From Alphaproteobacteria bacterium (GTDB lineage Bacteria; Pseudomonadota; Alphaproteobacteria; UBA828), in contig CAXXVO010000002.1 in assembly GCA_963422645.2 (NCBI GenBank), forward strand, positions 1 through 64,000: a stretch of 64,000 nucleotides of DNA. The letters are read 5' to 3'. The stretch's first letter is position 1; the number at the start of each line of letters is the position of its first letter. Below the pieces are notes generated by a model. It was given only the letters and a program-made list of their open reading frames with translations. It did no database searches and was not told where the DNA came from. Position numbers and translations under genes: made by a program. Shown piece by piece: positions 41,237 through 53,231 of this stretch.

Positions 41237-43750
41237 TTAGAGGTCCGGGAGGTAGTAGGCGACGAGCAATCTCGTGAGGATTTCGCCACGGAGCGCCAAA
41301 CGATCAACATCCTCTTTTGGCATGGCTGCGAAGTCGGTTGGGTAGTGCCGGACCTCGTCGCGTGTTGGGAGGTCCGCTGGAATCCAGGGCAAGGCATTGT
41401 CCTTCTGTCCGAGATAGGCCAACGCGAAGCCCGAGAGTTTTCCGTCGTCAGCAAAGTAGTGCAGGCGTTTTCGAGTAGCGTCCTGGACCTTGCGAAAGAC
41501 TGTGAGAAAGGACCGGTACATCCTAGTAGGCCAGCGGGTCGGGTAGCTGTCGGCGTCGAATAGGCCCGCGCCAGCGTCGCAACAAATGATGTACTCGGGG
41601 TCGAAAACATTCGTGCTGATAGAAGCTATCCGCCCAGGCTCCATCGGGTTAACGCCCAGATTCTCGAATACTCCACCATCGGTGAGCAGAACACGAGTCG
41701 GCGTACTGGTTTTCCCGTTCTTGACAAAGCGGTACTTGCGTTCAAGTGCAGGCAGAAAGACCGGATAGGCTGCCGAAGCGGCCACGGCATCGGCGACCAG
41801 AGCGTCTTCGGGGGCAATCGTTCCAAAACGCCAACAGCCGCTATGCCGACTTCCGAACCGGAATGCGGATCCGGTTCGCAGCTCGGTGGCATTGATAACC
41901 GTATCGAGCGATTCCCGGGAGACTTCGCGCACAATGGTATCGCCGAACATGGATTGAGCGATGACTTCCTTGAACGCCTCCGTGCGGCTGAACGTGCGCT
42001 CCACCGGCTGACTCACGCGATCAGGGTTGTTCGATGGGATCGCGACGCGAGCCAGGCGATGAAGTATGCGGGCGATGAAGCACAGACACGCGACAAAATG
42101 AACTCTGACAACCTTGCGGATGGAGCCCTGTAGAAACACCTGGCGAAAGATGTCGCGGTGAAGTCCTTTGTCCAGAAGCTGTAGTGCGCGCGCTTCAAAC
42201 TCCGGGAACGGATCGTCTGAATAGGCATACATTGCGGAGATCACAGAACCGCCAGACACACTCGAAATCACCTGGAGGCGATCAAGCAAATCCAGGTCGT
42301 GCAGAGCACGCAGACATCCCAGGTGAAACGCGATGGCGCGCGATCCCCCGCCGGAGAGCGCGAGCCCCACATTTCTCGGCTTCTGGAGGCGTGGCCCAAG
42401 CTGCGTCGTTGCTGCTGTGTTTCGTTCAATTCGAATGAAATTCTTGTCGGACAGTGTTGTCCTGAATGCATGCGCGCCAAGAATTGGATCGTCGGGATTC
42501 CCGGAGAGGATCAGGATCAAGCAGGTTCTTCGGGCGGAGACCGGGTCGGCTAGGAGCTGTGCGACGGCATCAATGTCGATATCGCTTGGGTGCGGCGAGG
42601 ACGAGGGGTGGGTATGCCAACTGCCGACGCAATCGACCGATCCGCGGAACCGGTCGCGCTTACTTTCGGCAGCCTCTATCATCCCTTTGACTCCGCAGGT
42701 GAAGTGCTCCTCGCTTGCGTCGCTGTCTGGCGGCGGTCCCTCCACCTCCGTGACCCAAAGCACGCCCGCGGCTTCGTTCAACTCACCAAATACCAGCCCG
42801 CCGGTCTCAATTCCTGGTCCCACCGTTCGCGCAGATCGTCTTGCCCATCCGCGCATTTCTCGCGCAGCAGTCGCAGATACCCGGACCGAATAGCCGCGCC
42901 CCTCGTCCCTGAGAGTATGTTCCGGGGGCCACGAAAACTCATGGACAGGTCCGGATTCTTCGCAAGTCCAGCCAAAGCCCGTGTGGCAGTCATCGGTCCC
43001 TTGGATCGCACGAGCGATAGAATTCAGCATGCGCGCTGACAGTCCTGCGAGATCGGCGTTGGAACCGATGAACGTCGGCTCCGAACAGCCAGGTTCTGGT
43101 TGAAATTCCTCGCCTGGCGCCGATCGCGGCCAGAAAGCCTGAAGCGGTCTCGCGAGCTGCGCACTTCGACACGCTTCGAGTTTGAGGCACCGAGTCAGGT
43201 CGAGCGTGCCGCCGCTATGGTTCCCTCGCGAAAGAGTAGCAATGCCGTTGGCGGCCTGACTGTCGATGGCGATGGATGCAATTGGAGGTCGCGTGTCCGG
43301 GGCGTCGCGTAGCACATGCTCCAGGGCCGTCCGAACCGCCATTGAGGCCGTGCAATCGAGCAGAAGGTCGACCATCGGAAGTGGATCGGCGCCTGTTACT
43401 CGTTGAATAAGGTCGCCGGTCGAAGCGACAGCTTCCAGATCGGGATCGATCCTTTTCAAGCGATCGGCCAGCGCGTGAGCCTTGAACCTTCCGATATCGG
43501 CGTCTTCAAAGCCTTGTCGTACTAGGAGACCGGGGGCGACCGTCTTGTTGTCTACAAGCTCTACCGTTCTGGCACCGGCCCGTACGACGCTTTCCGCCAC
43601 GTGGGTCCCTACAGCGCCGCATCCCCAAATCGCCACACGCTTACCGGAAAACCAAGCCATGGGGGATGCTTGATCCCGCCTCCTGGTGACCTCAGGACGC
43701 ATTTCCCTGACTCTGCACCAACCCACATCGGCCAAGACCGACCATTCCAC
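41237..43750 (-). CDS. ThiF/E1-like + JAB + patatin-like phospholipase fusion (probably the C-terminal part of an E2-E1-JAB-patatin protein)
   Basis: GCGAVG, 'LVRQ', 'LDCTA', 'EPGCSEPTF' (Cap2-type catalytic Cys); ETGG...WHTHP..PSDID; patatin LSGGGSRA, SVSGGS, DGG. Confidence 0.88.
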   Translation of the reverse strand: MEWSVLADVGWCRVREMRPEVTRRRDQASPMAWFSGKRVAIWGCGAVGTHVAESVVRAGARTVELVDNKTVAPGLLVRQGFEDADIGRFKAHALADRLKRIDPDLEAVASTGDLIQRVTGADPLPMVDLLLDCTASMAVRTALEHVLRDAPDTRPPIASIAIDSQAANGIATLSRGNHSGGTLDLTRCLKLEACRSAQLARPLQAFWPRSAPGEEFQPEPGCSEPTFIGSNADLAGLSARMLNSIARAIQGTDDCHTGFGWTCEESGPVHEFSWPPEHTLRDEGRGYSVRVSATAAREMRGWARRSARTVGPGIETGGLVFGELNEAAGVLWVTEVEGPPPDSDASEEHFTCGVKGMIEAAESKRDRFRGSVDCVGSWHTHPSSSPHPSDIDIDAVAQLLADPVSARRTCLILILSGNPDDPILGAHAFRTTLSDKNFIRIERNTAATTQLGPRLQKPRNVGLALSGGGSRAIAFHLGCLRALHDLDLLDRLQVISSVSGGSVISAMYAYSDDPFPEFEARALQLLDKGLHRDIFRQVFLQGSIRKVVRVHFVACLCFIARILHRLARVAIPSNNPDRVSQPVERTFSRTEAFKEVIAQSMFGDTIVREVSRESLDTVINATELRTGSAFRFGSRHSGCWRFGTIAPEDALVADAVAASAAYPVFLPALERKYRFVKNGKTSTPTRVLLTDGGVFENLGVNPMEPGRIASISTNVFDPEYIICCDAGAGLFDADSYPTRWPTRMYRSFLTVFRKVQDATRKRLHYFADDGKLSGFALAYLGQKDNALPWIPADLPTRDEVRHYPTDFAAMPKEDVDRLALRGEILTRLLVAYYLPDL

Positions 43751-43758
43751 GACCGCAA

Positions 43759-44655
43759 CTATCGCTGCACAGCCCGTTGTGCTGGATCATCGGCTGACGA
43801 CGAGACATTCAGCTCTCGCAGCTTGTCTGCGTCGGCAGTAGCGATTTCCCATACTGCGAGATGCTGAAGGGCTCGACCGCCCGGGTCTATTCGGCGCATC
43901 GGGGTACCGAGCACTACGGCCAGCGGGGTCACGGCGCCGCTGTTTCGCGCGTACAGCCCGAGTTGGCGGATGAACGGACCGTAGTCGAGACCGTGAGATT
44001 CCAGCTCTTTCAATAGGGAGTGGACAGTCTTTGGGTATTCGAAAGGCAGGTTCCTATGGAGCAAGATTGCGGGAGCGAAGTGGGCCGGCAGTTCATGACC
44101 ATGCTCCTGCCAGCCGACGATTTCGGTGCGATGGTGTCGTTCACGTAGTTCCGCCAACCCGAACCAAGGCGAGTCGTCAACCGGAGGAGTATCCGCCCTC
44201 GGCACAAATAAGCGGTCAACGATTGGATAGGCGACCGGCGGATGGAGTGGCGCGTCGTCGGGATCGAGGTTGTTGACTGCTGCGTCACGTATCCAGGAGT
44301 CTAACCGCTTGACAAAGCCGTACATCCCGTTTTCCGGGCGCCAGTCGGCGGAACTCCCGTAGAGGCAGAGTTGCCTCCGCCACTGGACGTGATTGAAGCC
44401 GGAGAAGCGAACATGCGGAGTCACGACCAGTGGATGCTCGAACGGGAAGGTAGGAGGTACGAGCACGCAGAAAGCCTCACGTGCTCGCACCGGTAGCCCA
44501 TCCTCGCCCCGCTCCAGGCCGTCGAATCGAATGCTTATCTCGAACAGGCGATAGGCGTCGACAAGCTGAGTGGCTTCGTAGAGCTGTACGGTGCCGTCCG
44601 AGGCATCCGCAATCTCCCTAAGCTGTTCCCAGGCGAGTTCGAAGGCATCGGCCAT
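43759..44655 (-). CDS. E2/UBC-like domain protein (N-terminal half of a Cap2-like fusion; likely frameshift at ~43770)
   Basis: 'VPPTFPFEHP...HVQWRRQLCLY....WRP....GFVKRLDSW' UBC-fold pattern with Cys. Confidence 0.75.
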   Translation of the reverse strand: MADAFELAWEQLREIADASDGTVQLYEATQLVDAYRLFEISIRFDGLERGEDGLPVRAREAFCVLVPPTFPFEHPLVVTPHVRFSGFNHVQWRRQLCLYGSSADWRPENGMYGFVKRLDSWIRDAAVNNLDPDDAPLHPPVAYPIVDRLFVPRADTPPVDDSPWFGLAELRERHHRTEIVGWQEHGHELPAHFAPAILLHRNLPFEYPKTVHSLLKELESHGLDYGPFIRQLGLYARNSGAVTPLAVVLGTPMRRIDPGGRALQHLAVWEIATADADKLRELNVSSSADDPAQRAVQR

Positions 44656-45779
44656 CAGGCCCGGCCGTACGTGTGAGCACTTTCGGGAGCTTCGTTTGAG
44701 CCCTTCGCTGCATCGGCGGCTTCCGAAGCGGTCATGGCGGCGGTCGCCACGCCGGCGAGCACGATCTTTCCATCCTTAAGTTCAGCCATGATCGGCTCGT
44801 CCTGATCCATTGTGCAAAGAAAGGACTCGGTGGTCGACTCGTACTGCGTCTTGGCCTTTGCATGGGGAGGGTTGTCACCGGCCTTGTTGGAGGACGGTAC
44901 CGTATTGGAGCTGGATATGACCCGATTGGGTTTCAAAGACGCCTTCTCCATTTCCTCAACGATGTGCTTCTTGAGCTTCTCCTCGTCGTCCCCTTCCTCC
45001 TTCCAGTACATCGCGGCCTTTGAGCAGTGGTGCGGTGCCAGCAGCACGTTCCATGCGAGATCGTCGTCTTCGTTGACGCCAAATATTCTCTTGATGATCG
45101 GGTAGGAAAGATCACCGAGGAGCAGCGCGCGCAGTATCTTGTCTCCGTCGTAAAGCGTGACCTGCATGCCGAGGCTCGTGTCGTTCCGCTCGCCGGCGTC
45201 ATCGTCCTTGAACGGGGCATGGACAAATGCCCGGAACTTGTCAGACACGTCCTTTTCGTCAATCGTGGTCACTTCGTTACCCGGTATCGTCAACCGATCT
45301 TCCGGAAAATCCTTGTAATCGTCCTCTTCCAGCAACTCCGAGTAGCCGAAAATACGCACGCGGTCGCCGGCGCCTGGATCGCCCTTGGCCTCGATCGTCT
45401 TCTTGACGCGCCGTTCCGCCTCCTTCTTGAAATCCTTCGCGTCGTCGCAGAGATCCTTATTATACTCGGCAAAGATTCTGGGCGTGAACCACAACTCGCC
45501 AATATCTACCTTGTCGAGGAGGTCCGAGAAACCCCGGCAATGGTCCTGATCAGGGTGAGTCAGAGCAAACACGGCCAGGTACGGTCGTCCATTGACCTTG
45601 GGCAACCGTTCTGAGAGCTCATCGACAACGGCCCAGCTGGCATCGTCGTCGTCGTCGGACTTTTGCAGATGATTGAGATCAACCTGCAGATACGTCTTCG
45701 AGTCGACAACAATGGATGTGCTGTCGCCATTTGCCACCGGCCAGAAGACCAGTCCGCGGTCAGGAAGTTCGAAGGCCAT
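44655..45779 (-). CDS. Metallo-beta-lactamase-fold hydrolase (ComEC/Rec2-like) with a C-terminal tail ending HTYGRA
   Basis: 'VANGDS', THPDQDH, 'NDTS', LLGD, APHHCS; low-complexity Ala-rich tail. Confidence 0.88.
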   Translation of the reverse strand: MAFELPDRGLVFWPVANGDSTSIVVDSKTYLQVDLNHLQKSDDDDDASWAVVDELSERLPKVNGRPYLAVFALTHPDQDHCRGFSDLLDKVDIGELWFTPRIFAEYNKDLCDDAKDFKKEAERRVKKTIEAKGDPGAGDRVRIFGYSELLEEDDYKDFPEDRLTIPGNEVTTIDEKDVSDKFRAFVHAPFKDDDAGERNDTSLGMQVTLYDGDKILRALLLGDLSYPIIKRIFGVNEDDDLAWNVLLAPHHCSKAAMYWKEEGDDEEKLKKHIVEEMEKASLKPNRVISSSNTVPSSNKAGDNPPHAKAKTQYESTTESFLCTMDQDEPIMAELKDGKIVLAGVATAAMTASEAADAAKGSNEAPESAHTYGRA

Positions 45780-45874: not shown

Positions 45875-47755
45875 TCATCGTACACACCGTGTGACAAACC
45901 CATTGCCGCCGCGTGCTGTAAGCAACGACACGCCATCTTCGATGTTTGTTTGAAAGACTTGTCGAGCTACTTTGCCGTACAGCTTGACTGCCTTTGCGTC
46001 TGGATGCCCGTATTGATTGTCGACCCCGGCGCTGATCAAGACCGTGTCCGGGGACACAAGTAGCGCCATTTTGGGATGAGCCGCATTCTTTGAGCCGTGA
46101 TGCGGGGCACTCAAGACGTCGGAAGAAAGACTATTTCCGAACAATCTGGTTAACCGCTTATGCACATGGCTCCGGTTCGATCAACATGCTGTAGGTAAGG
46201 GGTTTTGCATTGGTGGCGATGCGGAAGAGCGAGCGGAAAGCAGCGTGGCGGGTTTTGCGGCGGTTGAAGCGAAAGGCGAACTCATCGAGATAGGCCTGCA
46301 GATGCTTGCGGCGCAGCCCGTGGTAGACGCCTCGCGCCCATCCTTTGAGGTTGGAGAAGACTTGGTGGATCCACGGCAGGACGAGGTGAGCGGCGGTCTT
46401 CCCGACGACATGGACATTGTGGCGATCGGCGGGGACCGCAGCGTAGCCGGACCAGCCGTCGGTTTTCGCGATGGCGTCGGGATCGGCGGCGGTTTCGACG
46501 AAGTGTCCGAGGTCGGCGGCGCCGTAGGAGGAGATTTCGGCCAGCCGCAGGCGGCCCGGGATGGTTCCATCCCCCAGTTCGATGGCGCCGACGATGAGCA
46601 TCTTGCCGTCGTGGCTGCGTCCTTGCCCTCCGGTGGGAGGATCGTCTTTGGTCCGGAATGGAAGGCTGGCCTCGTCGATTTCCACCAGGCCCGACAACGG
46701 GTTGCGCTCGGGGTCGACCATGCTGGCGCGCAGCTTGTGGGCGAGCAGCCAAGCGCTGCGGTAAGAGCCGATACCGAGCTGTTTCTGGAGCTGCAGGGCA
46801 GAGATGCCGTTGGAGTGGGTCGCCATCAGGTAGGCGGCCCAGAACCAGACGGTGAGCGGCAGCTTGCTGGCGTGCAGGATCGTCCCGGCCGTCACCGAGG
46901 TCTGCCGGCGGCAGCCGGCGCACTCGAAGGTGTGTGCTTTTCTGCGCAGCGCCCATCCCTTTTCATGGCCGCACGCGGGACAGACGAAGCCGTCCGGCCA
47001 GCGCATTTCGATCAGCCAGGCGGCGCAGGCGTCATCGTCCGGGAACATGTGCTGGAAGGCGAGGAGGCTGTCGGCGACCTGTTTCATGTGGTGGCTCCGT
47101 CGGCAGGAACGTATAGGCAACATTCTACCCGTTCTCCCGCCCTAACCTCAACCTCAACATCTGGTGGCAAACTCTCGCGACCGGAGCCATGTGCATAAGC
47201 GGTTCTGGTTATTGTGTCCCAGCGGTCGTTTTCCGTATCTCCCGTTATCAGATAAGGAAACCCATTCCCGCCAATTCCCGACAACTTGAGGACTATGCTA
47301 CAGTTGTTGGAATTATCCATGTCTTCACTATGCGGAGAAAACAGCTCATAGGAAAAATACTTGGAAAGCCCATTCAGTTTTCGCGAATGGAGGTCCAACC
47401 GTACCGAGAGCTTCTTTAGGGGCTTTCCTGTATTCCTTCGCCGGCGCTCATGCTTGTTGATAACCTTGAACACGTCGGTGGCATTATCGGTATCCTTGTA
47501 ATACTTCGGATACATGATCCAATTGGGTTTGTACTCTCCCAGAATGTTGTCAACCCCATACGGGTCAGCATGGTCGTTATCGAACCCTGTCAATACGAGG
47601 CCCGCTAAGTCCTGATTGCGGAGAAACACCTGCAATTGCTTCTCGATTGCTTTAGCGTGTTCGTCGGGCCAGCGCGAATCGACGATCACGGCTTCTCCGC
47701 GGTGGCGGATGGCGATCAACTCACCCTGTCCTACGTATACCGTCAGCGTCTGCAT
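45875..47755 (-). pseudogene. MBL-fold (ComEC/Rec2-like) hydrolase interrupted by IS1595
   Basis: 'VGQG', TGFDNDH, NNCS, ITGD, APHHGS, YGHP; removing the IS and one TSD restores in-frame ...WDTITR-LFGN... Confidence 0.88.
46153..47203 (-). mobile_element. IS1595-family element (tnp ~46158-47087)
   Basis: TIR ACCGCTTATGCACATGGCTCCGG; 8-bp TSD TCTGGTTA; CPAC..CAGC, VEIDE, TDGW, 'YLDEFAFRFNRR'. Confidence 0.95.
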
Positions 47756-47757
47756 TG

Positions 47758-48696
47758 CTATTGCCCACTCCGTTCGCTGATGGCCCAATACAGCGATTGG
47801 TTCAATTCTCTCTCGAACGCACTCACCGCCTGTGCCGCAGACCCGAACTGCCGTCCGCTGAAGTCCTCGTAGACCCCTGCGCACACGCTTGGCAGCTTCT
47901 TGGCCAGAACTTGGTAATAGGAAGCCTCTCCGTCCTCCGATGTGTCTATTTCGGGGACCGTGACATCTATCGATGACCCGTCAACCAGTTCCAGCTCTCC
48001 CTTCCAATACAGAGTGCCGGCGCGTTTCGACCAGTACGGCTGAAGCGACGGGAAGAGGTCTGGAATGGTCGCACTATCCCTGGTCCGGACTTCCTTGCTG
48101 TGCCCCGCCTCTGTCTTGCTCAGCTCCGGCCTCGATCCAAGGGGCCAAACGGGTGCGTCTCTCGTAAGGGTGACTTTCGCGGGTTCGACCTCGTAAACGG
48201 CATCGTCACCCCGTAACAGGATGTAGTGCCTGACGCTGTAGCGTGACGCCGCCTCTCCACCAGCCAGCCGGGAAACGACGAGTAGTGCATAAAAGAAATC
48301 AAGGTTGTGCTTTTCGTGATTCACTATCCTTCTGTAGGTTGCAATGTCGCCGCCGCTGAGGTTTGGAAATCCATTCACATGATGTGTGTGCCAATTGCCA
48401 AGATGCTCAACTTCAGGGCGCGCGCTCTCGATCTGGCGAAATATCTCCGCTTGGTAGTCGCCGTCCTGGAAGAAACTTGTGGTGGACCTCCGCGCATTCG
48501 GTCCAGCCTCGATGACACCGGTAACCGTGACCTCCAATGAGCCATCGGCGCAGCGCCGAAACCGTCCTACGATCCGCCCACCCGTCTCGTCATGGTCATA
48601 ACGATCGCAGTCATCGAAGATCGACTCCAGTACCAGCGAAGGGATCGATAGCGTAGCGTTGGCATCCTTTAGGTCGCTATTCATTGGAACCTCCAC
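47758..48696 (-). CDS. JAB/MPN (JAMM) metallo-isopeptidase with a C-terminal extra domain
   Basis: ETGG...GNWHTHH....LSGGD JAMM motif; ~110-aa C-terminal extension. Confidence 0.88.
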   Translation of the reverse strand: MEVPMNSDLKDANATLSIPSLVLESIFDDCDRYDHDETGGRIVGRFRRCADGSLEVTVTGVIEAGPNARRSTTSFFQDGDYQAEIFRQIESARPEVEHLGNWHTHHVNGFPNLSGGDIATYRRIVNHEKHNLDFFYALLVVSRLAGGEAASRYSVRHYILLRGDDAVYEVEPAKVTLTRDAPVWPLGSRPELSKTEAGHSKEVRTRDSATIPDLFPSLQPYWSKRAGTLYWKGELELVDGSSIDVTVPEIDTSEDGEASYYQVLAKKLPSVCAGVYEDFSGRQFGSAAQAVSAFERELNQSLYWAISERSGQ

Positions 48697-49519
48697 AAAC
48701 TAGGCAACCCTCCTGCCGATGCAGGGTGATTCTTTGCAGCTCGAAGCTCTTGCTGAATGGATGTATCGGTCGATTTCCCCAAACCACGTAATTTTCCGGG
48801 ATAGCGGGAAGAAACGCTGGCCGTTGTGGGGCCAGCCGAGCCAAAGCGTCCATCACATAGCGCACGTGAAAAAGCGTGATGAACCCGATGTCTACCGCGA
48901 GGCCTGGGGAATCCTTTATCTCTTGAGGATCCAATCCGTACATTTGCTCCCGGTCTTCTTCGGAAGCGAGATCAATCTCCCTGACACCGTCTCGGAATTT
49001 AGTTCGTTCGAGAACACCCTCCAGACAAGCAAGACACCCACTCTCGCCCGGACGATAACCAAACACCTCTCCGCCAATCCCGCGGGTGAACACTTTTCCG
49101 ACAACGAATGGTGTTTCATTTCGAACACACAATTCGTTCATTTGAAATCGTGTCGGATCATTGTCGGTGGCAAGTACGACGATGTGGGAGCGTTGGACCT
49201 CACTCTCCAAGCCATGCCACTGCATCAGATCTTCTTCGACTTTCAGTACAGAAATATCTGGGTTTCGATCCTTGAGTACGTCTTCCAGTGCATCAACCTT
49301 CTTGCGACCGACAAATCGAAGTCCGCAAACATGCCGAATCACATTTTCGGATTTCATCACGTCTTTATCGATCAACGTGAAGTGTTTGACGCCTGACATG
49401 ACAAGTTGGAGCGCAACCTGGCCCCCGCCAGACCCGCAACCTGCGATGAGTACACGGGATTCGGCGAAGGCCTCGACGTCAAACAGACCTTCAATTCTCG
49501 CAAATAGGTTTTCGTGCAA
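48677..49519 (-). CDS. ThiF/MoeB/E1-like adenylyltransferase
   Basis: GCGSGG, 'IDKD...ENVIRH', 'KKVDAL', 'ATDN', Zn motifs CLAC and CLVC; TTG start directly after the upstream stop. Confidence 0.9.
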   Translation of the reverse strand: MHENLFARIEGLFDVEAFAESRVLIAGCGSGGGQVALQLVMSGVKHFTLIDKDVMKSENVIRHVCGLRFVGRKKVDALEDVLKDRNPDISVLKVEEDLMQWHGLESEVQRSHIVVLATDNDPTRFQMNELCVRNETPFVVGKVFTRGIGGEVFGYRPGESGCLACLEGVLERTKFRDGVREIDLASEEDREQMYGLDPQEIKDSPGLAVDIGFITLFHVRYVMDALARLAPQRPAFLPAIPENYVVWGNRPIHPFSKSFELQRITLHRQEGCLVCGGSNE

Positions 49520-49520
49520 T

Positions 49521-50048
49521 TCAGGTGCCCTCCCGCTCGGGCCAATTGCCGGTAGTGGACCACAATGCATAGCCGCTTAGCCATCGCCGACACAGTTTCA
49601 AGGTATGAACCACATCGTGTCGCCCGGGATTCCAGGTTTCCATGGCGCCAAAAATGCAAAGAGAGCCGTCAAGCCAGAGATGAGGAGATGATGGGTCTAT
49701 CGGATCGGCTGTAACCACCGGGGACTTGTTCGGATACCCGTGGGGTAGCGTGATGCATAAACGGATATCCTTCTCTTGGCCTGGTTCAGTAAGAATTAAT
49801 TGTATTTCCCTATTCTCCGTTATAGATACGCGAAATGGTTCACTTTCGGCAGCAAGACCATCAAGTTCCTGCGATATCCTGTTCGGGGAGATATCAGGCA
49901 GGAAGACGGAAATGGGCACCAGACATGCCTTTTGTTGTCCGCTTCTCTCTACAACATAGGCACGACCGCGTACCGCGACGTCATCCAGAATTTCTCCGGG
50001 TCGGCTGCGGAGATCCATCATGGATAGAGGTTGGAAGTCGATGTGCAT
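49521..50048 (-). CDS. Phd/YefM-like DNA-binding domain fused to an E2/UBC-like domain
   Basis: N-terminal 'SMMDLRSRPGEILDDV...YVVERSGQQKACLVPI'; C-terminal 'ITLPHGYPNKSP...PHLWLDGSLCIF....WNP'. Confidence 0.75.
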   Translation of the reverse strand: MHIDFQPLSMMDLRSRPGEILDDVAVRGRAYVVERSGQQKACLVPISVFLPDISPNRISQELDGLAAESEPFRVSITENREIQLILTEPGQEKDIRLCITLPHGYPNKSPVVTADPIDPSSPHLWLDGSLCIFGAMETWNPGRHDVVHTLKLCRRWLSGYALWSTTGNWPEREGT

Positions 50049-50054
50049 GGCAGA

Positions 50055-50429
50055 TCAATGGGCAATGCCCGCACCGGGCCAACGACGCTGAACGCAATAG
50101 ACTTCGTATTTGGCTAGCCATTTGGCCGCTCGCGCAATGACGAAGCGGAGGTCATGACGTCCAGGGTTCCAAAAATTCGGATGCAAGTAGCAAAGTTGAT
50201 TATCGGTGTACCGATGAGGGGAGGGTTGCAGCGCAGGTGTCCGGACGAAAACCTGGGGCATCGCATTCGGGTACGACTGCGGGAACGTTACTGCCAGTGT
50301 GTAGTAGCGGAGCGACGTCTGTAGCGCGACCAAAGCCATCAATCCGCCTGCGTTGGTGGGGTGCGCCTCGACGTAGTCGAAGTGCTGCTGCGCGGTCGCA
50401 ATATCCCGTTGGATTCTTGTCAGATTCAC
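50055..50429 (-). CDS. E2/UBC-like conjugating enzyme
   Basis: 'VTFPQSYPNAMPQV...PHRYTDNQLCYL....WNP...VIARAAKWL'; GTG start overlaps the stop of the 64-aa ORF. Confidence 0.8.
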   Translation of the reverse strand: MNLTRIQRDIATAQQHFDYVEAHPTNAGGLMALVALQTSLRYYTLAVTFPQSYPNAMPQVFVRTPALQPSPHRYTDNQLCYLHPNFWNPGRHDLRFVIARAAKWLAKYEVYCVQRRWPGAGIAH

Positions 50430-50620
50430 CGCGAGTCTCCACGGGCGCTGTATTCGCCTCCTAGGTCTTCCCTCATCGTGATCGGCTTGCGATAGCCGCT
50501 TTCCGCAGCAGCGCTTCCGCCGAGCTCCCGCACCTCGCCGTTGGGCAGGATTTCGATCGGGGAGTCCTCCTCCTCGTCCAAGATCGCCTCGAGTTCGTGG
50601 ATTGTCGGTTTTCTCGCCAT
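50426..50620 (-). CDS. 64-aa acidic peptide with an LGG motif; first gene of the operon
   Basis: AGGTG RBS, ATG, GTGA coupling to E2; MARKPTIHELEAILDEEEDSPIEILPNGEV...KPITMREDLGGEYSARGDSR. Confidence 0.7.
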   Translation of the reverse strand: MARKPTIHELEAILDEEEDSPIEILPNGEVRELGGSAAAESGYRKPITMREDLGGEYSARGDSR

Positions 50621-50644
50621 TTCGCGTCACCTATGAGGATCGTG

Positions 50645-50682
50645 CGGTTATGATAGTTGTACAGTTCATAACCGGCTGTCAA
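50645..50682 (-). promoter_or_regulatory. Putative promoter/operator of the ubiquitin-like operon
   Basis: TTGACA (-35, 50677-50682); perfect IR CGGTTATGA-N12-TCATAACCG (50645-50674) enclosing TGTACA; -10 box is not canonical. Confidence 0.6.
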
Positions 50683-50859
50683 GGGAAGAAGCCGGCTCTA
50701 GCGGATGGTGTCCTGGGCATCGCGCTACGCGGCACCAAGCCGTGGACATGACGGCGAGCCATGGTCAGGCGTCGTCGAGGGCAAGGCGTTGGAGGAGGGA
50801 GGTGCAGCCCTCCCGCACGATGGCGGGGGCCCGCGCCCGTTTCTGAGGATGGAGGAAGA

Positions 50860-51000
50860 ATCGAGGCGTCGCGGCGAGGCCGGCAAAGGTCTACAGGTAC
50901 TCAACCGGATGATCGCCGGACCGATACCGGGAGTAGCGAAACCATGCCTTCGGCAGGTGCGGAGCTTCGAACGGCCCGTCGCCGCGGACATAGACCCGGG
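50860..51000 (-). mobile_element. Degenerate IS66 tnpC remnant
   Basis: 'VYVRGDGPF...FRYSRYRSGDHPVEYL' matches the tnpC segment at ~36930-37040. Confidence 0.65.
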
Positions 51001-51130
51001 ACCGTACGGTGCTCCCGATCGGGCTGGACCGCTTCGGAATTCCGGATCGTGATTGCGAAGGCGACCGGCATGAAGTACCTCGGTGGCCCTTCGCCGGCCG
51101 GCGGGCCACGAGAGCTTGGTGTGCTCGTCC

Positions 51131-51204
51131 GCAATGTTCGCTGCGCAGCGAATATTGCCAGGTTCTCGAATATCCGCTAGAAGGCATATATTTGCTGCGC
51201 AGCA
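51131..51204. promoter_or_regulatory. Two palindromes with a GCTGCGCAGC core upstream of the AbiEi-like gene
   Basis: GCAATGTTCGCTGCGCAGCGAATATTGC (28 bp, one mismatched pair) and TGCTGCGCAGCA (51193-51204). Confidence 0.65.
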
Positions 51205-51219
51205 GAATAGGCTTGAACG

Positions 51220-52317
51220 GTGATGCTTGACTCGGACGTAATGGAAGGACAGCTGGTTGACGGGTTCCTGGAAGCCCTGCGGGAGCTCCCCGATGCGCAG
51301 GCGGAGGTCAGTGAGGCCGAACAGCCGGGCGGCCGCGATCGAGGACATGACGTCCAGGTTGACCTCCGGGTGGGTGGGAAGGCGGCCACCCTGCTGATTG
51401 AGATGAAGAAGGACGTATATCCCCGTGACGTGCGGCAGGTACTTTGGCAGCTCCGCGGCTCCGCACGGAGAAGGCCGCACCCGGAAGAAAAACGGGAAGC
51501 GGTGTTCTTCCTGATCGCCCGATCGATTTCACCTGGAGCCAAGGAGCTGTTGAGGAACGAGCGGGTCGGCTACTACGACAGCGGCGGCAGCCTGTTTCTG
51601 CCCGCCGGCAACATCTACGTGTATGTGGACAAGCCGCCCCCGAAAAGCCTGTCGCGGTCCATCCGTTCCGTGTTTTCGGGCCGTCGTGCGCAAGTGCTGC
51701 ACGCGGTCCTGCTGCGACATCGCGAGTGGTTCGGGGTGAATGACATCGCCAACCAAGCCCGGGTATCGCCCGCGACCGCCTCGCAGGTTCTGATGGAAAT
51801 GGAGAAGTTCGAATGGGTGGTGTCGCGTGGACAGGGGCCAGGAAAAGAACGCCATCTGCAAGAGCCAGGCGCCTTGCTGGATGCATGGGTGAACCAGCAG
51901 GCGGTGATGCGGCCGCTGTCCATGCGGCGTTACTTCGTGCCGTCGGCGGGCGCGGAAGGGCTGGTGGAGAAGTTCGCCGAGGTCTGCGCAGAGAGCAAGG
52001 CCGAATACGCGATCACTCACGAGGCGGCAGGGCAACGGTACGCGCCATTTCTGTCAACTGTCTCCCAGGTGCGTTGCCGGCTGCTGGAGGGCCCGGCAGC
52101 AGATCGGGGTCTTAGCGCAATTGATGCTCGATTCGTGGACCAAGGCGCGAACCTTGCGGTCATCGAGGTCAAGTCGCCGAGCGAGTTGCTGTTTCGCGAA
52201 TTCGTGAACGGGATCTGGCTGGCAAGTGCTGTGCAGGTCTACCTCGACCTGATGCGCAGCGAGGGCCGCGCTAGGGAAATGGCGGAGCACCTGCGCCACG
52301 AAAGGATCGGCTTCTGA
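51220..52317 (+). CDS. AbiEi-like (type IV TA antitoxin) transcriptional regulator
   Basis: Central wHTH 'VNDIANQARVSPATASQVL', 'PGALLDAW', C-terminal 'VQVYLDL...GRAREMAEHL'. Confidence 0.72.
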   Translation: MMLDSDVMEGQLVDGFLEALRELPDAQAEVSEAEQPGGRDRGHDVQVDLRVGGKAATLLIEMKKDVYPRDVRQVLWQLRGSARRRPHPEEKREAVFFLIARSISPGAKELLRNERVGYYDSGGSLFLPAGNIYVYVDKPPPKSLSRSIRSVFSGRRAQVLHAVLLRHREWFGVNDIANQARVSPATASQVLMEMEKFEWVVSRGQGPGKERHLQEPGALLDAWVNQQAVMRPLSMRRYFVPSAGAEGLVEKFAEVCAESKAEYAITHEAAGQRYAPFLSTVSQVRCRLLEGPAADRGLSAIDARFVDQGANLAVIEVKSPSELLFREFVNGIWLASAVQVYLDLMRSEGRAREMAEHLRHERIGF

Positions 52318-53231
52318 TGGTGAAGCCCGCGACGTTCGACGGCTACAGCGATCGGTACACGGTCGAATGCGAGCGGGTCCTCGTAACTCTGCTGCGCGGA
52401 CTGGGCCCGTGGAAGGAGTCCGTGTTTCTGGTGGGCGGACTGACTCCCAGATACTTGGTGGCGGCTCGGCCGCCGGAAGTGCCGGCGCATGCCGGCACGC
52501 TCGACGTGGACATCGTCATCGATCTGCAGATCCTGGCTGACACTGCGGGCTATCGCACGCTTGAGGAGAACCTGCGAGCGATGAGGTTCGAGCGGTCGAT
52601 GAACGAGAGAGGCCAGAGGCTTTCATGGCGGTGGCAGACTCGCACCGAAAGCGGTGCGCTGATGGTGGTCGAGCTGCTCGCCGACGCGCCGGACATCGCT
52701 GGTGGCAGGGTCGAACCGCTGCCTACGGAAGGGAACATTTCCGCGCTCAACATCCCGCATTCGTCCATTGTCTTCGAAATGCACCAGGTCGCGGAGATTC
52801 GGGCAGAGCTCCTGGGCGGTGGGGGAAACGCCGTCGAAGTGGTGAGGCACGCCGATTTGGTGAGCTTCACTTGCTTGAAGGCTTTCGCCTTCGACCAGCG
52901 CTTCGAGCGGAAGGACGCCCATGACCTGATGTATTGCATTGAACACGCGGAGCGAGGTCTCGACGGAGCCGCGTACATGTTCCGCGAGGCCTTGGGGGGC
53001 AAGCACGGCGCAGTGATTTGGGACTGTTTGTCAATTCTTCGCAATCGTTTCGCAGGGGACGGCGAAGTCGAGGGGTATCGGAAAGACGGTCCGGTAGCGG
53101 TGGCCCGCTTCGAACTGGGTGAGGGTGACGATGCTGGTCAGCGCGAAGCTCGGTTGCTGAGGCAGCGGGAGGTCAACAGCGTGATGGAGCAACTTCTGGG
53201 TCGGATCGCTTCGGAGGCGGCATGGCGGTAA
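52317..53231 (+). CDS. AbiEii-like nucleotidyltransferase (type IV TA toxin-like)
   Basis: 'LVGGL', 'GTLDVD', 'LKAFAF..R...KDAHDL'; coupled to the upstream gene. Confidence 0.72.
   Translation: MVKPATFDGYSDRYTVECERVLVTLLRGLGPWKESVFLVGGLTPRYLVAARPPEVPAHAGTLDVDIVIDLQILADTAGYRTLEENLRAMRFERSMNERGQRLSWRWQTRTESGALMVVELLADAPDIAGGRVEPLPTEGNISALNIPHSSIVFEMHQVAEIRAELLGGGGNAVEVVRHADLVSFTCLKAFAFDQRFERKDAHDLMYCIEHAERGLDGAAYMFREALGGKHGAVIWDCLSILRNRFAGDGEVEGYRKDGPVAVARFELGEGDDAGQREARLLRQREVNSVMEQLLGRIASEAAWR

Follow-up and report, generated by a model that had tools for sequence, protein, structure and literature searches.

Why should a component of a bacterial ubiquitin-like conjugation pathway carry a DNA-binding domain? 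The question is raised by a gene in the 64,000-nucleotide (nt) stretch of alphaproteobacterial DNA analysed here (contig CAXXVO010000002.1, positions 1 to 64,000; hereafter the window). The gene (49521-50048, minus strand) codes for a fusion protein of 175 amino acids (aa), with a Phd/YefM-type domain in residues 1-50 (49899-50048, minus strand), the predicted DNA-binding and dimerisation module, and an E2/UBC-like domain in residues 55-175 (49521-49886 with the stop codon, minus strand). It is the third of six genes in a tight operon at 47.0-50.7 kilobases of the minus strand, in which a small open reading frame (ORF), an E2, the Phd-E2 fusion, an E1, a JAB peptidase, and a metallo-β-lactamase (MBL)-fold gene follow one another. 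The answer that we favour, with modest confidence, is that the fusion is the built-in transcriptional regulator of this six-gene E1/E2/JAB/MBL conjugation operon, acting as a dimer on short repeated octamers, with its E2-like domain as a sensor or partner module.

The structural models indicate that residues 1-50 of the fusion have the Phd/YefM fold, as the original prediction had proposed for the N-terminal ~50 aa. Residues 9-47 of the window protein match the Pfam family PF02604 (PhdYeFM_antitox) with E = 0.0059 and 16.8 bits, and the same family matches 61/61 aligned homologues at E ≤ 0.01 (best 1.2e-7). A comparison of folds was needed because sequence searches of this domain against PDB chains gave nothing usable: a profile of 18 sequences returned three chance-level matches only, and the single sequence returned 2odk alone (E = 0.43). 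The AlphaFold2 model of residues 1-58, with a predicted local distance difference test (pLDDT) of 89.6, displays the N-terminal β-α-β-β fold of the Phd/YefM family. Its top Foldseek matches in the PDB are almost all Phd/YefM-type antitoxins (2odk, 3g5o, 4zlx, 4zm2, and 2a6q), mostly at a root-mean-square deviation (rmsd) of 1.2-2.0 Å over ~46 residues; the small size of the domain keeps the E-values at a modest 0.01-0.1. P1 Phd is matched through its isolated DNA-binding domain (4zlx), with a template-modelling (TM) score of 0.82 on the target and an rmsd of 1.5 Å for 46 residues, and also in complex with its operator (4zm0 and 4zm2). Within the protein, conservation is highest in the N-domain: 28 of its 58 columns are invariant among 18 sequences, and R14, R35, and C42 are each invariant in 88/88 relatives. 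DNA binding by the N-domain of YefM is reported to require two arginines. Seven homologous loci (L006, L008, L009, L010, L015, L017, and L020) have Thr, Pro, or Arg in place of Met1, and their ORF opens 20-45 codons further upstream; these ORFs have 199-221 aa, so that some members of the family carry an N-terminal extension ahead of the Phd domain.

The fusion is also predicted to form a homodimer, with a score of 0.65 against 0.01 for the best of three controls; the mark that this score passes is also passed by 20 of the 30 proteins whose structure was solved as a same-chain pair and by 1 of the 23 whose structure is a single chain. At least 95% of the contacts of the predicted dimer agree between runs, with a partner pLDDT of at least 88. 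The interface consists of residues 1-49 and 62-80, and the strand 41-46 pairs with itself. This pass may reflect likeness to Phd/YefM dimers that are already solved.

The cis evidence comes from the relatives of the operon. Of 718 candidates from a word-index search with the fusion, 667 reach E ≤ 0.001, and the best 120 of these 667 are nearly all 155-220 aa long; precomputed Pfam annotation assigns PF26395, which the ESM Atlas names 'E2-CBASS', to 116 of the 120 and PF02604 as well to 41. The two nearest ESM Atlas clusters, of 98 and 393 members, are automatically named Phd/YefM antitoxins. The 17 genome loci lie in metagenome-assembled genomes (MAGs) labelled Binatia, Paracoccaceae, Gemmatimonadetes, Longimicrobiales, Terriglobia, Holophagales, and several Gammaproteobacteria, and a metagenome scan confirmed at least 279 further relatives, 80 of which were kept. 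Gene order is constant in the loci whose ORF lists were inspected: small ORF, E2, Phd-E2, E1, JAB, and an MBL-fold gene of ~274-289 aa. After this core there is often a second MBL-fold gene or a patatin-like gene, and an MBL-fold gene of 374-402 aa follows it in loci other than the window's too; the flanking genes vary from locus to locus. The fusion proteins of MAGs labelled Binatia and Paracoccaceae are 96% identical, and the operon of the window (47758-50620) has a G+C content of 54.9% against 64.7% for the window as a whole. Because of the low G+C and of the near-identical proteins in two phyla, the operon appears to be a mobile element, and both features point to recent horizontal transfer. 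The window's genome holds one copy of it.

Upstream regions, taken as the 120 nt before the small ORF, were drawn from 98 sequences (97 loci and the window), of which 88 have the small ORF, 84 of these at least 120 nt upstream of it, and 78 are unique. In an unbiased count of 8-mers the commonest is TCGCACGA, found in 24/66 upstream regions against 0.30 expected; GTGCAAT comes next (21/66), and no 8-mer exceeds 6 in 200 dinucleotide shuffles of this set of 66, which contained five duplicates (61 unique). Both words read as versions of a single octamer, YGTGCRAT. Exact copies of YGTGCRAT occur at 56 sites in 46 of the 78 unique upstream regions; shuffled sequences average 1.62 such sites and never exceed 6. 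The control DNA contains few: 435 coding pieces from these loci have 6 sites in all, and 77 pieces covering -240 to -121 have 1. With one mismatch allowed, the octamer is found in 50/61 upstream regions against a shuffle mean of 19. The loci span MAGs of several phyla with unrelated flanks, hence the octamer travels with the operon.

The octamers are also consistently placed. They lie mostly 20-60 nt ahead of the start codon, 33 in plus and 23 in minus orientation, and the occurrence of both orientations favours recognition of double-stranded DNA over RNA. TTGAC is found in 50/78 upstream regions, and in 29 of the 32 regions having both elements all exact octamers are downstream of it, mostly at +20 to +49 nt; words resembling the Shine-Dalgarno sequence occur within the last 20 nt of 61/78 regions. 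Same-orientation neighbours at 8 nt account for 17 pairs; L083, a triple tandem, L046, and L063 have three or four units abutting the ribosome site. Inverted pairs are found at an offset of 15 (5 pairs) and of 6 (4 pairs), and the offset-15 pairs of L078 and L079 form perfect palindromes with 9-nt arms, that of L078 being TGTGCAATT-N5-AATTGCACA. Perfect inverted repeats with arms of at least 9 nt are present in 10/78 upstream regions and are mostly built of the octamer itself.

Two other descriptions of the motif were considered. The self-complementary 8-mer TYGYRCRA has 44 sites in 30/78 regions (shuffle mean 2.7), which is fewer loci than YGTGCRAT, and its flanking base counts are not symmetric. 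The octamer variants GTGCAA and GTGCGA might have tracked residues of the Phd domain, and columns 3, 11 (M/T), 16 (S/R), 20, 49, and 59 do differ between the corresponding sets of 19 and 23 sequences, but these groups are clades, and three loci (L083, L090, and L095) carry both variants, for which reasons we give the difference no weight.

The Phd-like domain could instead be no more than a scaffold for dimerisation, through which the E2-like domain becomes bivalent, perhaps within a complex of E2 and pseudo-E2, the octamers being bound by something else or being unrelated elements of the promoter or leader. The predicted dimer interface is indeed the Phd domain, the octamers differ from known Phd/YefM operators in their asymmetry and 8-bp tandem spacing, those of the window are degenerate (see below), and the C-terminal ~170 aa of the JAB protein could conceal another activity. 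Against this reading, the N-domain is the part of the protein that is best conserved, with R14 and R35 present in 88/88 relatives; Pfam, NCBIfam, and PADLOC scans of the other operon proteins match no DNA-binding family; and a host factor is unlikely to explain a motif that accompanies the operon across phyla with unrelated flanks. We regard the scaffold as unlikely.

How far does the window itself conform? On its minus strand the order is TTGACA (-35-like, 50682-50677, read from the sequence), GC, CGGTTATGA (50674-50666), ACTGTACAACTA, TCATAACCG (50653-50645), CACGATCCTCAT, the Shine-Dalgarno-like AGGTGA (50627-50632), six bases, and the ATG of the small ORF. Two degenerate copies of the octamer can be recognised: TGTACAAC (50656-50663, minus strand), with two mismatches to YGTGCRAT, and CGTGCGGT (50641-50648, plus strand, and thus inverted relative to the operon), with one mismatch, 15 nt after the first copy and at -28. 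The first copy contains TGTACA (50658-50663), exactly where the original prediction had placed it. In the two loci L001 and L002 the corresponding places are occupied by octamers: after TTGACA, in the same register as TGTACAAC, L002 has CTGTGCAAT and L001 has CTATGCAAT, with TGTGCAAT of L002 in the register of the window's TGTACA and TATGCAAT of L001 at the first octamer place; L002 also has CGTGCGAC at the place of the window's CGTGCGGT, at the same distance from TTGACA. Because these octamers stand in the same register after TTGACA, the window's TGTACA appears to be the core of a real, homologous site. TATCAT was considered as a -10 box and rejected, as it lies 21 nt after TTGACA, which is too far.

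The original prediction had seen the operator in the 30-bp element CGGTTATGA-N12-TCATAACCG (50645-50674) with its TGTACA, and had suggested that its occupancy may be switched by charging of the protein's own E2 cysteine (Cys131, as a thioester). The repeat is there with its N12 spacer and is perfect (9/9 complementary); the TTGACA said to abut it is also present, but two nucleotides (GC) intervene. The repeat lies between TTGACA and the ribosome site and is locally unusual, since shuffling the 200 nt ahead of the small ORF 5000 times produces such a repeat in only 71 cases (1.4%), and the 10 upstream regions with long perfect arms make palindromes a trait of the family. In the whole window there is no excess of perfect 9-nt inverted repeats with spacers of 0-20 nt: 16 are found, against a mean of 12.5 and a maximum of 20 in 50 shuffles. 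The arms CGGTTATGA and TCATAACCG are not conserved upstream of homologous operons, as they occur in 1/78 unique upstream regions, that of the window itself; even L001, with a Phd domain 100% identical to the window's, and L002, with one 98% identical, lack them, and most other loci build their inverted repeats from the octamer. Nor are the two symmetries concentric, the centre of TGTACA being 1 nt off the centre of the repeat. This lineage-specific repeat may have arisen by chance or as a local elaboration of the operator, and the combination of a 30-bp operator with a Cys131 switch is quite improbable. The second half of that proposal depends on the C-terminal domain.

The C-terminal half of the fusion is, by the models, an E2/UBC fold paralogous to the adjacent E2. 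The paralogy that the original prediction had read from the WNPGRHD shared by the two proteins is borne out by BLASTP (36% identity over 75 residues, E = 1e-15, with WNPGRHD aligned), and the motif WNPG.H is kept by both paralogues. The full-length AlphaFold2 model, made from the alignment of 61 homologues, has a pLDDT of 89.3 and the element order strand 5-9, helices 10-15 and 17-27, strands 30-35 and 38-43, a helix, four strands, and a long C-terminal helix. Its Foldseek matches are E2, UBC, UFC1, and UEV structures (UFC1, Ube2W, Ubc13, and Rad6) with E-values of 3e-4 to 1e-3; a PADLOC E2 model matches the fusion at 7.6e-9, and Pfam gives weak matches to RWD, UQ_con, and UEV. Matches to RWD are found in 31/61 family members. 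Searches with the whole protein, both against PDB sequences and with Foldseek, detect the E2 half alone.

The two E2 paralogues differ in the conservation of the catalytic cysteine. In the standalone E2, Cys80 and His72 are invariant in 85/85 unique relatives. The window's fusion has C131 (codon 49656-49658) and H123, but among 89 unique fusions, two of them gapped at the column, the residues at position 131 of the 87 ungapped relatives include 58 Cys, 19 Ser, 6 Ala, and 1 Gly, and 64 of the 87 keep His123. The closer homologues (alignment A1) had masked this variability, as the cysteine is at least 90% conserved there. Because the cysteine of the 124-aa standalone protein is invariant whereas that of the fusion varies, the former appears to be the catalytic E2 of the system, and the fused copy, like UEV and RWD domains, seems able to do without the nucleophile. 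Pairs of a catalytic E2 and an inactive E2 variant are known, such as Ubc13 with Mms2/Uev1, the variants having RWD/UEV domains. Here, likewise, an E2 with an invariant Cys stands beside a paralogue with a dispensable one, and UEV structures are among the fold matches; the paralogue, however, bears a predicted DNA-binding domain.

These counts bear directly on the switch by self-charging, to which the presence of both Cys131 and His123 in the window protein lends some support. The residue is replaced in 26 of 87 relatives, in seven of them by Ala or Gly, which are not chargeable. As position 131 is not always Cys, charging of the fusion's own cysteine is unlikely as the general mechanism of the family, contrary to the original prediction, although self-charging is possible in Cys-bearing members such as the window's fusion. 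In our view the fusion is unlikely to be an obligatory self-charging enzyme. For Bub systems, the abstract of PMC11601596 reports serine E2s that use oxyesters, and by analogy some of the Ser-bearing fused copies (19/87, among L018-L097) may still be catalytic in another way.

The same residues give some room to the idea that the fusion is a DNA-tethered component of the conjugation machinery, its E2-like module being put on DNA to tag DNA-bound proteins or to sense a DNA signal, with transcriptional control secondary or absent. Position 131 is Cys or Ser in most relatives, serine E2s being reported for Bub systems (PMC11601596), and WNPG.H is kept in both paralogues. The conserved sites are confined, however, to the operon's own promoter and leader among the pieces of the loci that were tested, and the relatives with Ala or Gly still keep the Phd domain. 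We think this very improbable.

We return to the fusion as regulator of its own operon. What makes autoregulation plausible is the strong enrichment of a family-specific octamer in the promoters and leaders of homologous operons. The N-domain would dimerise and bind repeated copies of YGTGCRAT, which in the window would be the degenerate pair TGTACAAC and inverted CGTGCGGT. The octamers would cover the -10 region, the start site, and the early leader, and their occupation would repress the operon, as is suggested by the fold, by the cis evidence, and by what is established for YefM and Phd. The E2-like domain occupies the place of the classical toxin-binding tail and by analogy would most likely be a module that receives a signal or binds a partner; the candidates are the catalytic E2, the E1, and the LGGEY peptide encoded by the small ORF or its conjugate. 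The state of the conjugation machinery would thus feed back on transcription.

Several observations weigh against this reading. The window protein is below the curated cutoff of PF02604 (16.8 against 29.8 bits), and neither profile nor single-sequence searches of the N-domain against PDB sequences gave a Phd/YefM entry below E = 0.4. It is by analogy alone that the E2-like domain is given a sensor role. The promoter of the window has no exact octamer, only one copy with one mismatch and one with two, and 32 of the 78 upstream regions also lack an exact copy. The octamer is asymmetric and often a direct 8-bp tandem, whereas the classical Phd/YefM palindromes are 12-13 bp apart centre to centre. 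A scan of 50300-51300 with sigma-70 promoter and terminator consensus models found no promoter-like and no terminator-like site, and no properly spaced -10 near TTGACA. Finally, the motif was defined on the same, mutually related sequences in which it was counted, so that the shuffle statistics overstate independence; at 48-60% protein identity, however, substitutions should have saturated the non-coding DNA.

The peptide that heads the operon is a further peculiarity of the family. It is present in 88/98 sequences, the remaining 10 being mostly truncated at contig ends, and is acidic and ~57-66 aa long among the 88, in which ILPNGE and ...KP.TM.E.LGGEY are kept at ≥95%. The stop codon directly follows the Y of LGGEY in 29/88, and the others have variable tails of 2-11 aa. 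Pfam, NCBIfam, PADLOC, and the ESM Atlas gave no match, or in the last case no usable one. The E1/E2/JAB set may use the peptide as a modifier or act on it as a substrate. The peptide recalls Pup, which is likewise small and has a GGE motif, and in our judgement it looks too short, and its N-terminus too helical, for an obvious β-grasp fold. A bolder version of the regulatory reading, which we find rather doubtful, would make the fusion a transcription factor with an E2/UEV-like ligand-sensing half whose occupancy of DNA is set by the cascade, through docking of charged E2 or E1 or through attachment of the leader peptide, the LGGEY peptide being a non-β-grasp modifier trimmed by the JAB protein and activated by the E1 and E2. 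If this were true, the operon would be a self-contained defence module that reports its own conjugation state, with MBL-fold proteins as effectors.

The closest precedents for the regulatory half are YefM and P1 Phd. In the accessible part of PMC1802561, both are described as autorepressors at paired short palindromes over the -10 box: the long repeat of YefM is 5'-TCATTGTACAATGA-3', Phd has two 8-bp palindromes with GTAC cores, and in both proteins the N-terminal part binds DNA while the C-terminal part binds the toxin, which is a co-repressor. As given there, these operators resemble TGTRCAAT on comparison of sequences. The fusion shares the N-terminal fold, is likewise predicted to dimerise through the N-domain, and likewise has short GT(A/G)C-containing sites repeated over its own core promoter. 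In contrast, the palindromes of YefM and Phd are 12-13 bp apart in that account, whereas the octamers found here lack symmetry and often follow one another in 8-bp tandem; where the antitoxins have a disordered toxin-binding tail, the fusion has a folded E2/UBC-like domain; and no gene for a toxin of Doc, YoeB, or RelE type follows the fusion in Pfam, NCBIfam, and PADLOC scans, its neighbours being the E2 and the E1. The database name 'Phd/YefM antitoxin' is probably misleading for this family.

For the conjugation half the nearest models of E1, E2, and JAB are those of type II CBASS (Cap2/Cap3) and of 6A-MBL (partial matches to NF058523, PADLOC models, and PF26395), and MBL-fold genes follow as well. 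The operon differs from both in that E2, E1, and JAB are separate genes, that there are two E2 paralogues, and that a dedicated ~60-aa LGGEY peptide heads it. It lacks the fused E2-E1-JAB protein (cap2_3) and the specific MBL enzyme of 6A-MBL: NF058523 has a cutoff of 320 bits and gives only 57.1 and 45.6, and the operon's MBL scores 17.1 bits against the NF058524 cutoff of 220. There is also no CD-NTase (cyclase) gene in the operon, unlike in type II CBASS; a PADLOC 'Cyclase' match (PDLC00816) was discarded, as it covers only profile positions 453-542, aligned to the E2 domains. The operon matches none of the types 6a-6e as set out in the accessible part of PMC1779556, and it does not fit the Bub systems, which in the accessible part of PMC11601596 have oxyesters and a serine protease. 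A dedicated regulator on a bacterial ubiquitin-like defence operon is also known from CapH/CapP of CBASS and Bil (6C), according to the accessible part of bioRxiv 10.1101/2023.09.26.559546, but there it consists of separate genes with other folds and a DNA-damage response, whereas here the DNA-binding domain is fused to the pathway's own E2-like domain. No description of a Phd/YefM-E2 fusion or of the LGGEY operon was found in the literature, the supplementary tables of the Bil, Bub, and defence-system papers, which might list such operons, lying outside this search.

The remaining genes of the operon, all on the minus strand, are assigned as follows. The small ORF (50426-50620) codes for a 64-aa acidic peptide whose conserved part ends in ...TMREDLGGEY and is followed by a variable tail. 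The standalone E2 (50055-50429, 124 aa) has a GTG start that overlaps the stop of the small ORF, and is matched by PADLOC E2 models (best 4.8e-11) and weakly by the Pfam families UQ_con and Prok-E2_B. After the fusion come an E1-like adenylating enzyme of the ThiF family (48677-49570; Pfam ThiF 1.3e-30, PADLOC E1-E2 models to 3.2e-32) and a JAB/JAMM peptidase (47758-48696; Prok-JAB 1.3e-4, PADLOC JAB 1.5e-14), which has the motif HxH...S..D in its translation and a C-terminal extension of ~170 aa to which Pfam and NCBIfam scans assign no function. The sixth gene codes for a ComEC-like protein of MBL fold and is broken at about residue 187 by an insertion sequence. Taking the intact 276-aa gene of L012 as reference, its N-terminal part (47204-47755; TIGR00361, 2e-11) is 73% identical to residues 1-187 and its C-terminal part (45875-46165) 78% identical to residues 185-276; between them lies an IS1595-family transposase (46158-47123; DDE_Tnp_IS1595 5.7e-26, Zn_ribbon_IS1595 1e-12). 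The first five genes are intact, but because the transposase splits the sixth, the system as a whole is probably not functional in the present genome.

Contigs from RNA libraries of four runs (X15-X18, probably two data sets each filed twice) match 50218-50552 and 50374-50581 with 95-99% identity. They span the junction of the small ORF and the E2; such matches are no proof of transcription, and no start site can be read from them. The promoter, the fusion gene, and the rest of the stretch have no cover by such contigs, which says nothing either way.

The operon is flanked on both sides by further genes of interest. Directly downstream is a second conjugation set (41237-45779, minus strand), made up of an MBL-fold enzyme of 6A-MBL type (44655-45779, minus strand; NF058524, 2.1e-86, 290 bits), which is outside the six-gene core, a separate Prok-E2_A protein (43759-44655, minus strand), and a ThiF-JAB-patatin fusion of 837 aa (41237-43750, minus strand). 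By its sequence this set looks like a split 6A-MBL-like system with a phospholipase domain. Upstream of the operon and divergent from it are two ORFs of 365 and 304 aa (51220-53231, plus strand) with a one-base overlap, which have no Pfam match at E ≤ 0.001; their translations are reminiscent of an AbiEi/AbiEii-type pair.

Bacterial operons with E1, E2, and JAB proteins, such as those of type II CBASS, Bil, Bub, and 6A-MBL, are studied as relatives of eukaryotic ubiquitination with a role in phage defence, and how they are turned off and on is mostly unknown. In the literature searched there is no description of an operon type like the present one, in which a catalytic E2 and a proposed E2-like regulator are preceded by a short LGGEY peptide. 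Proteins that databases have automatically named antitoxins, and that have no toxin partner, receive a corrected label. The family as a whole provides a testable case of such control, in which the well-understood Phd/YefM domain is fused to a component of the pathway and comparative data supply a simple, repeated candidate operator.

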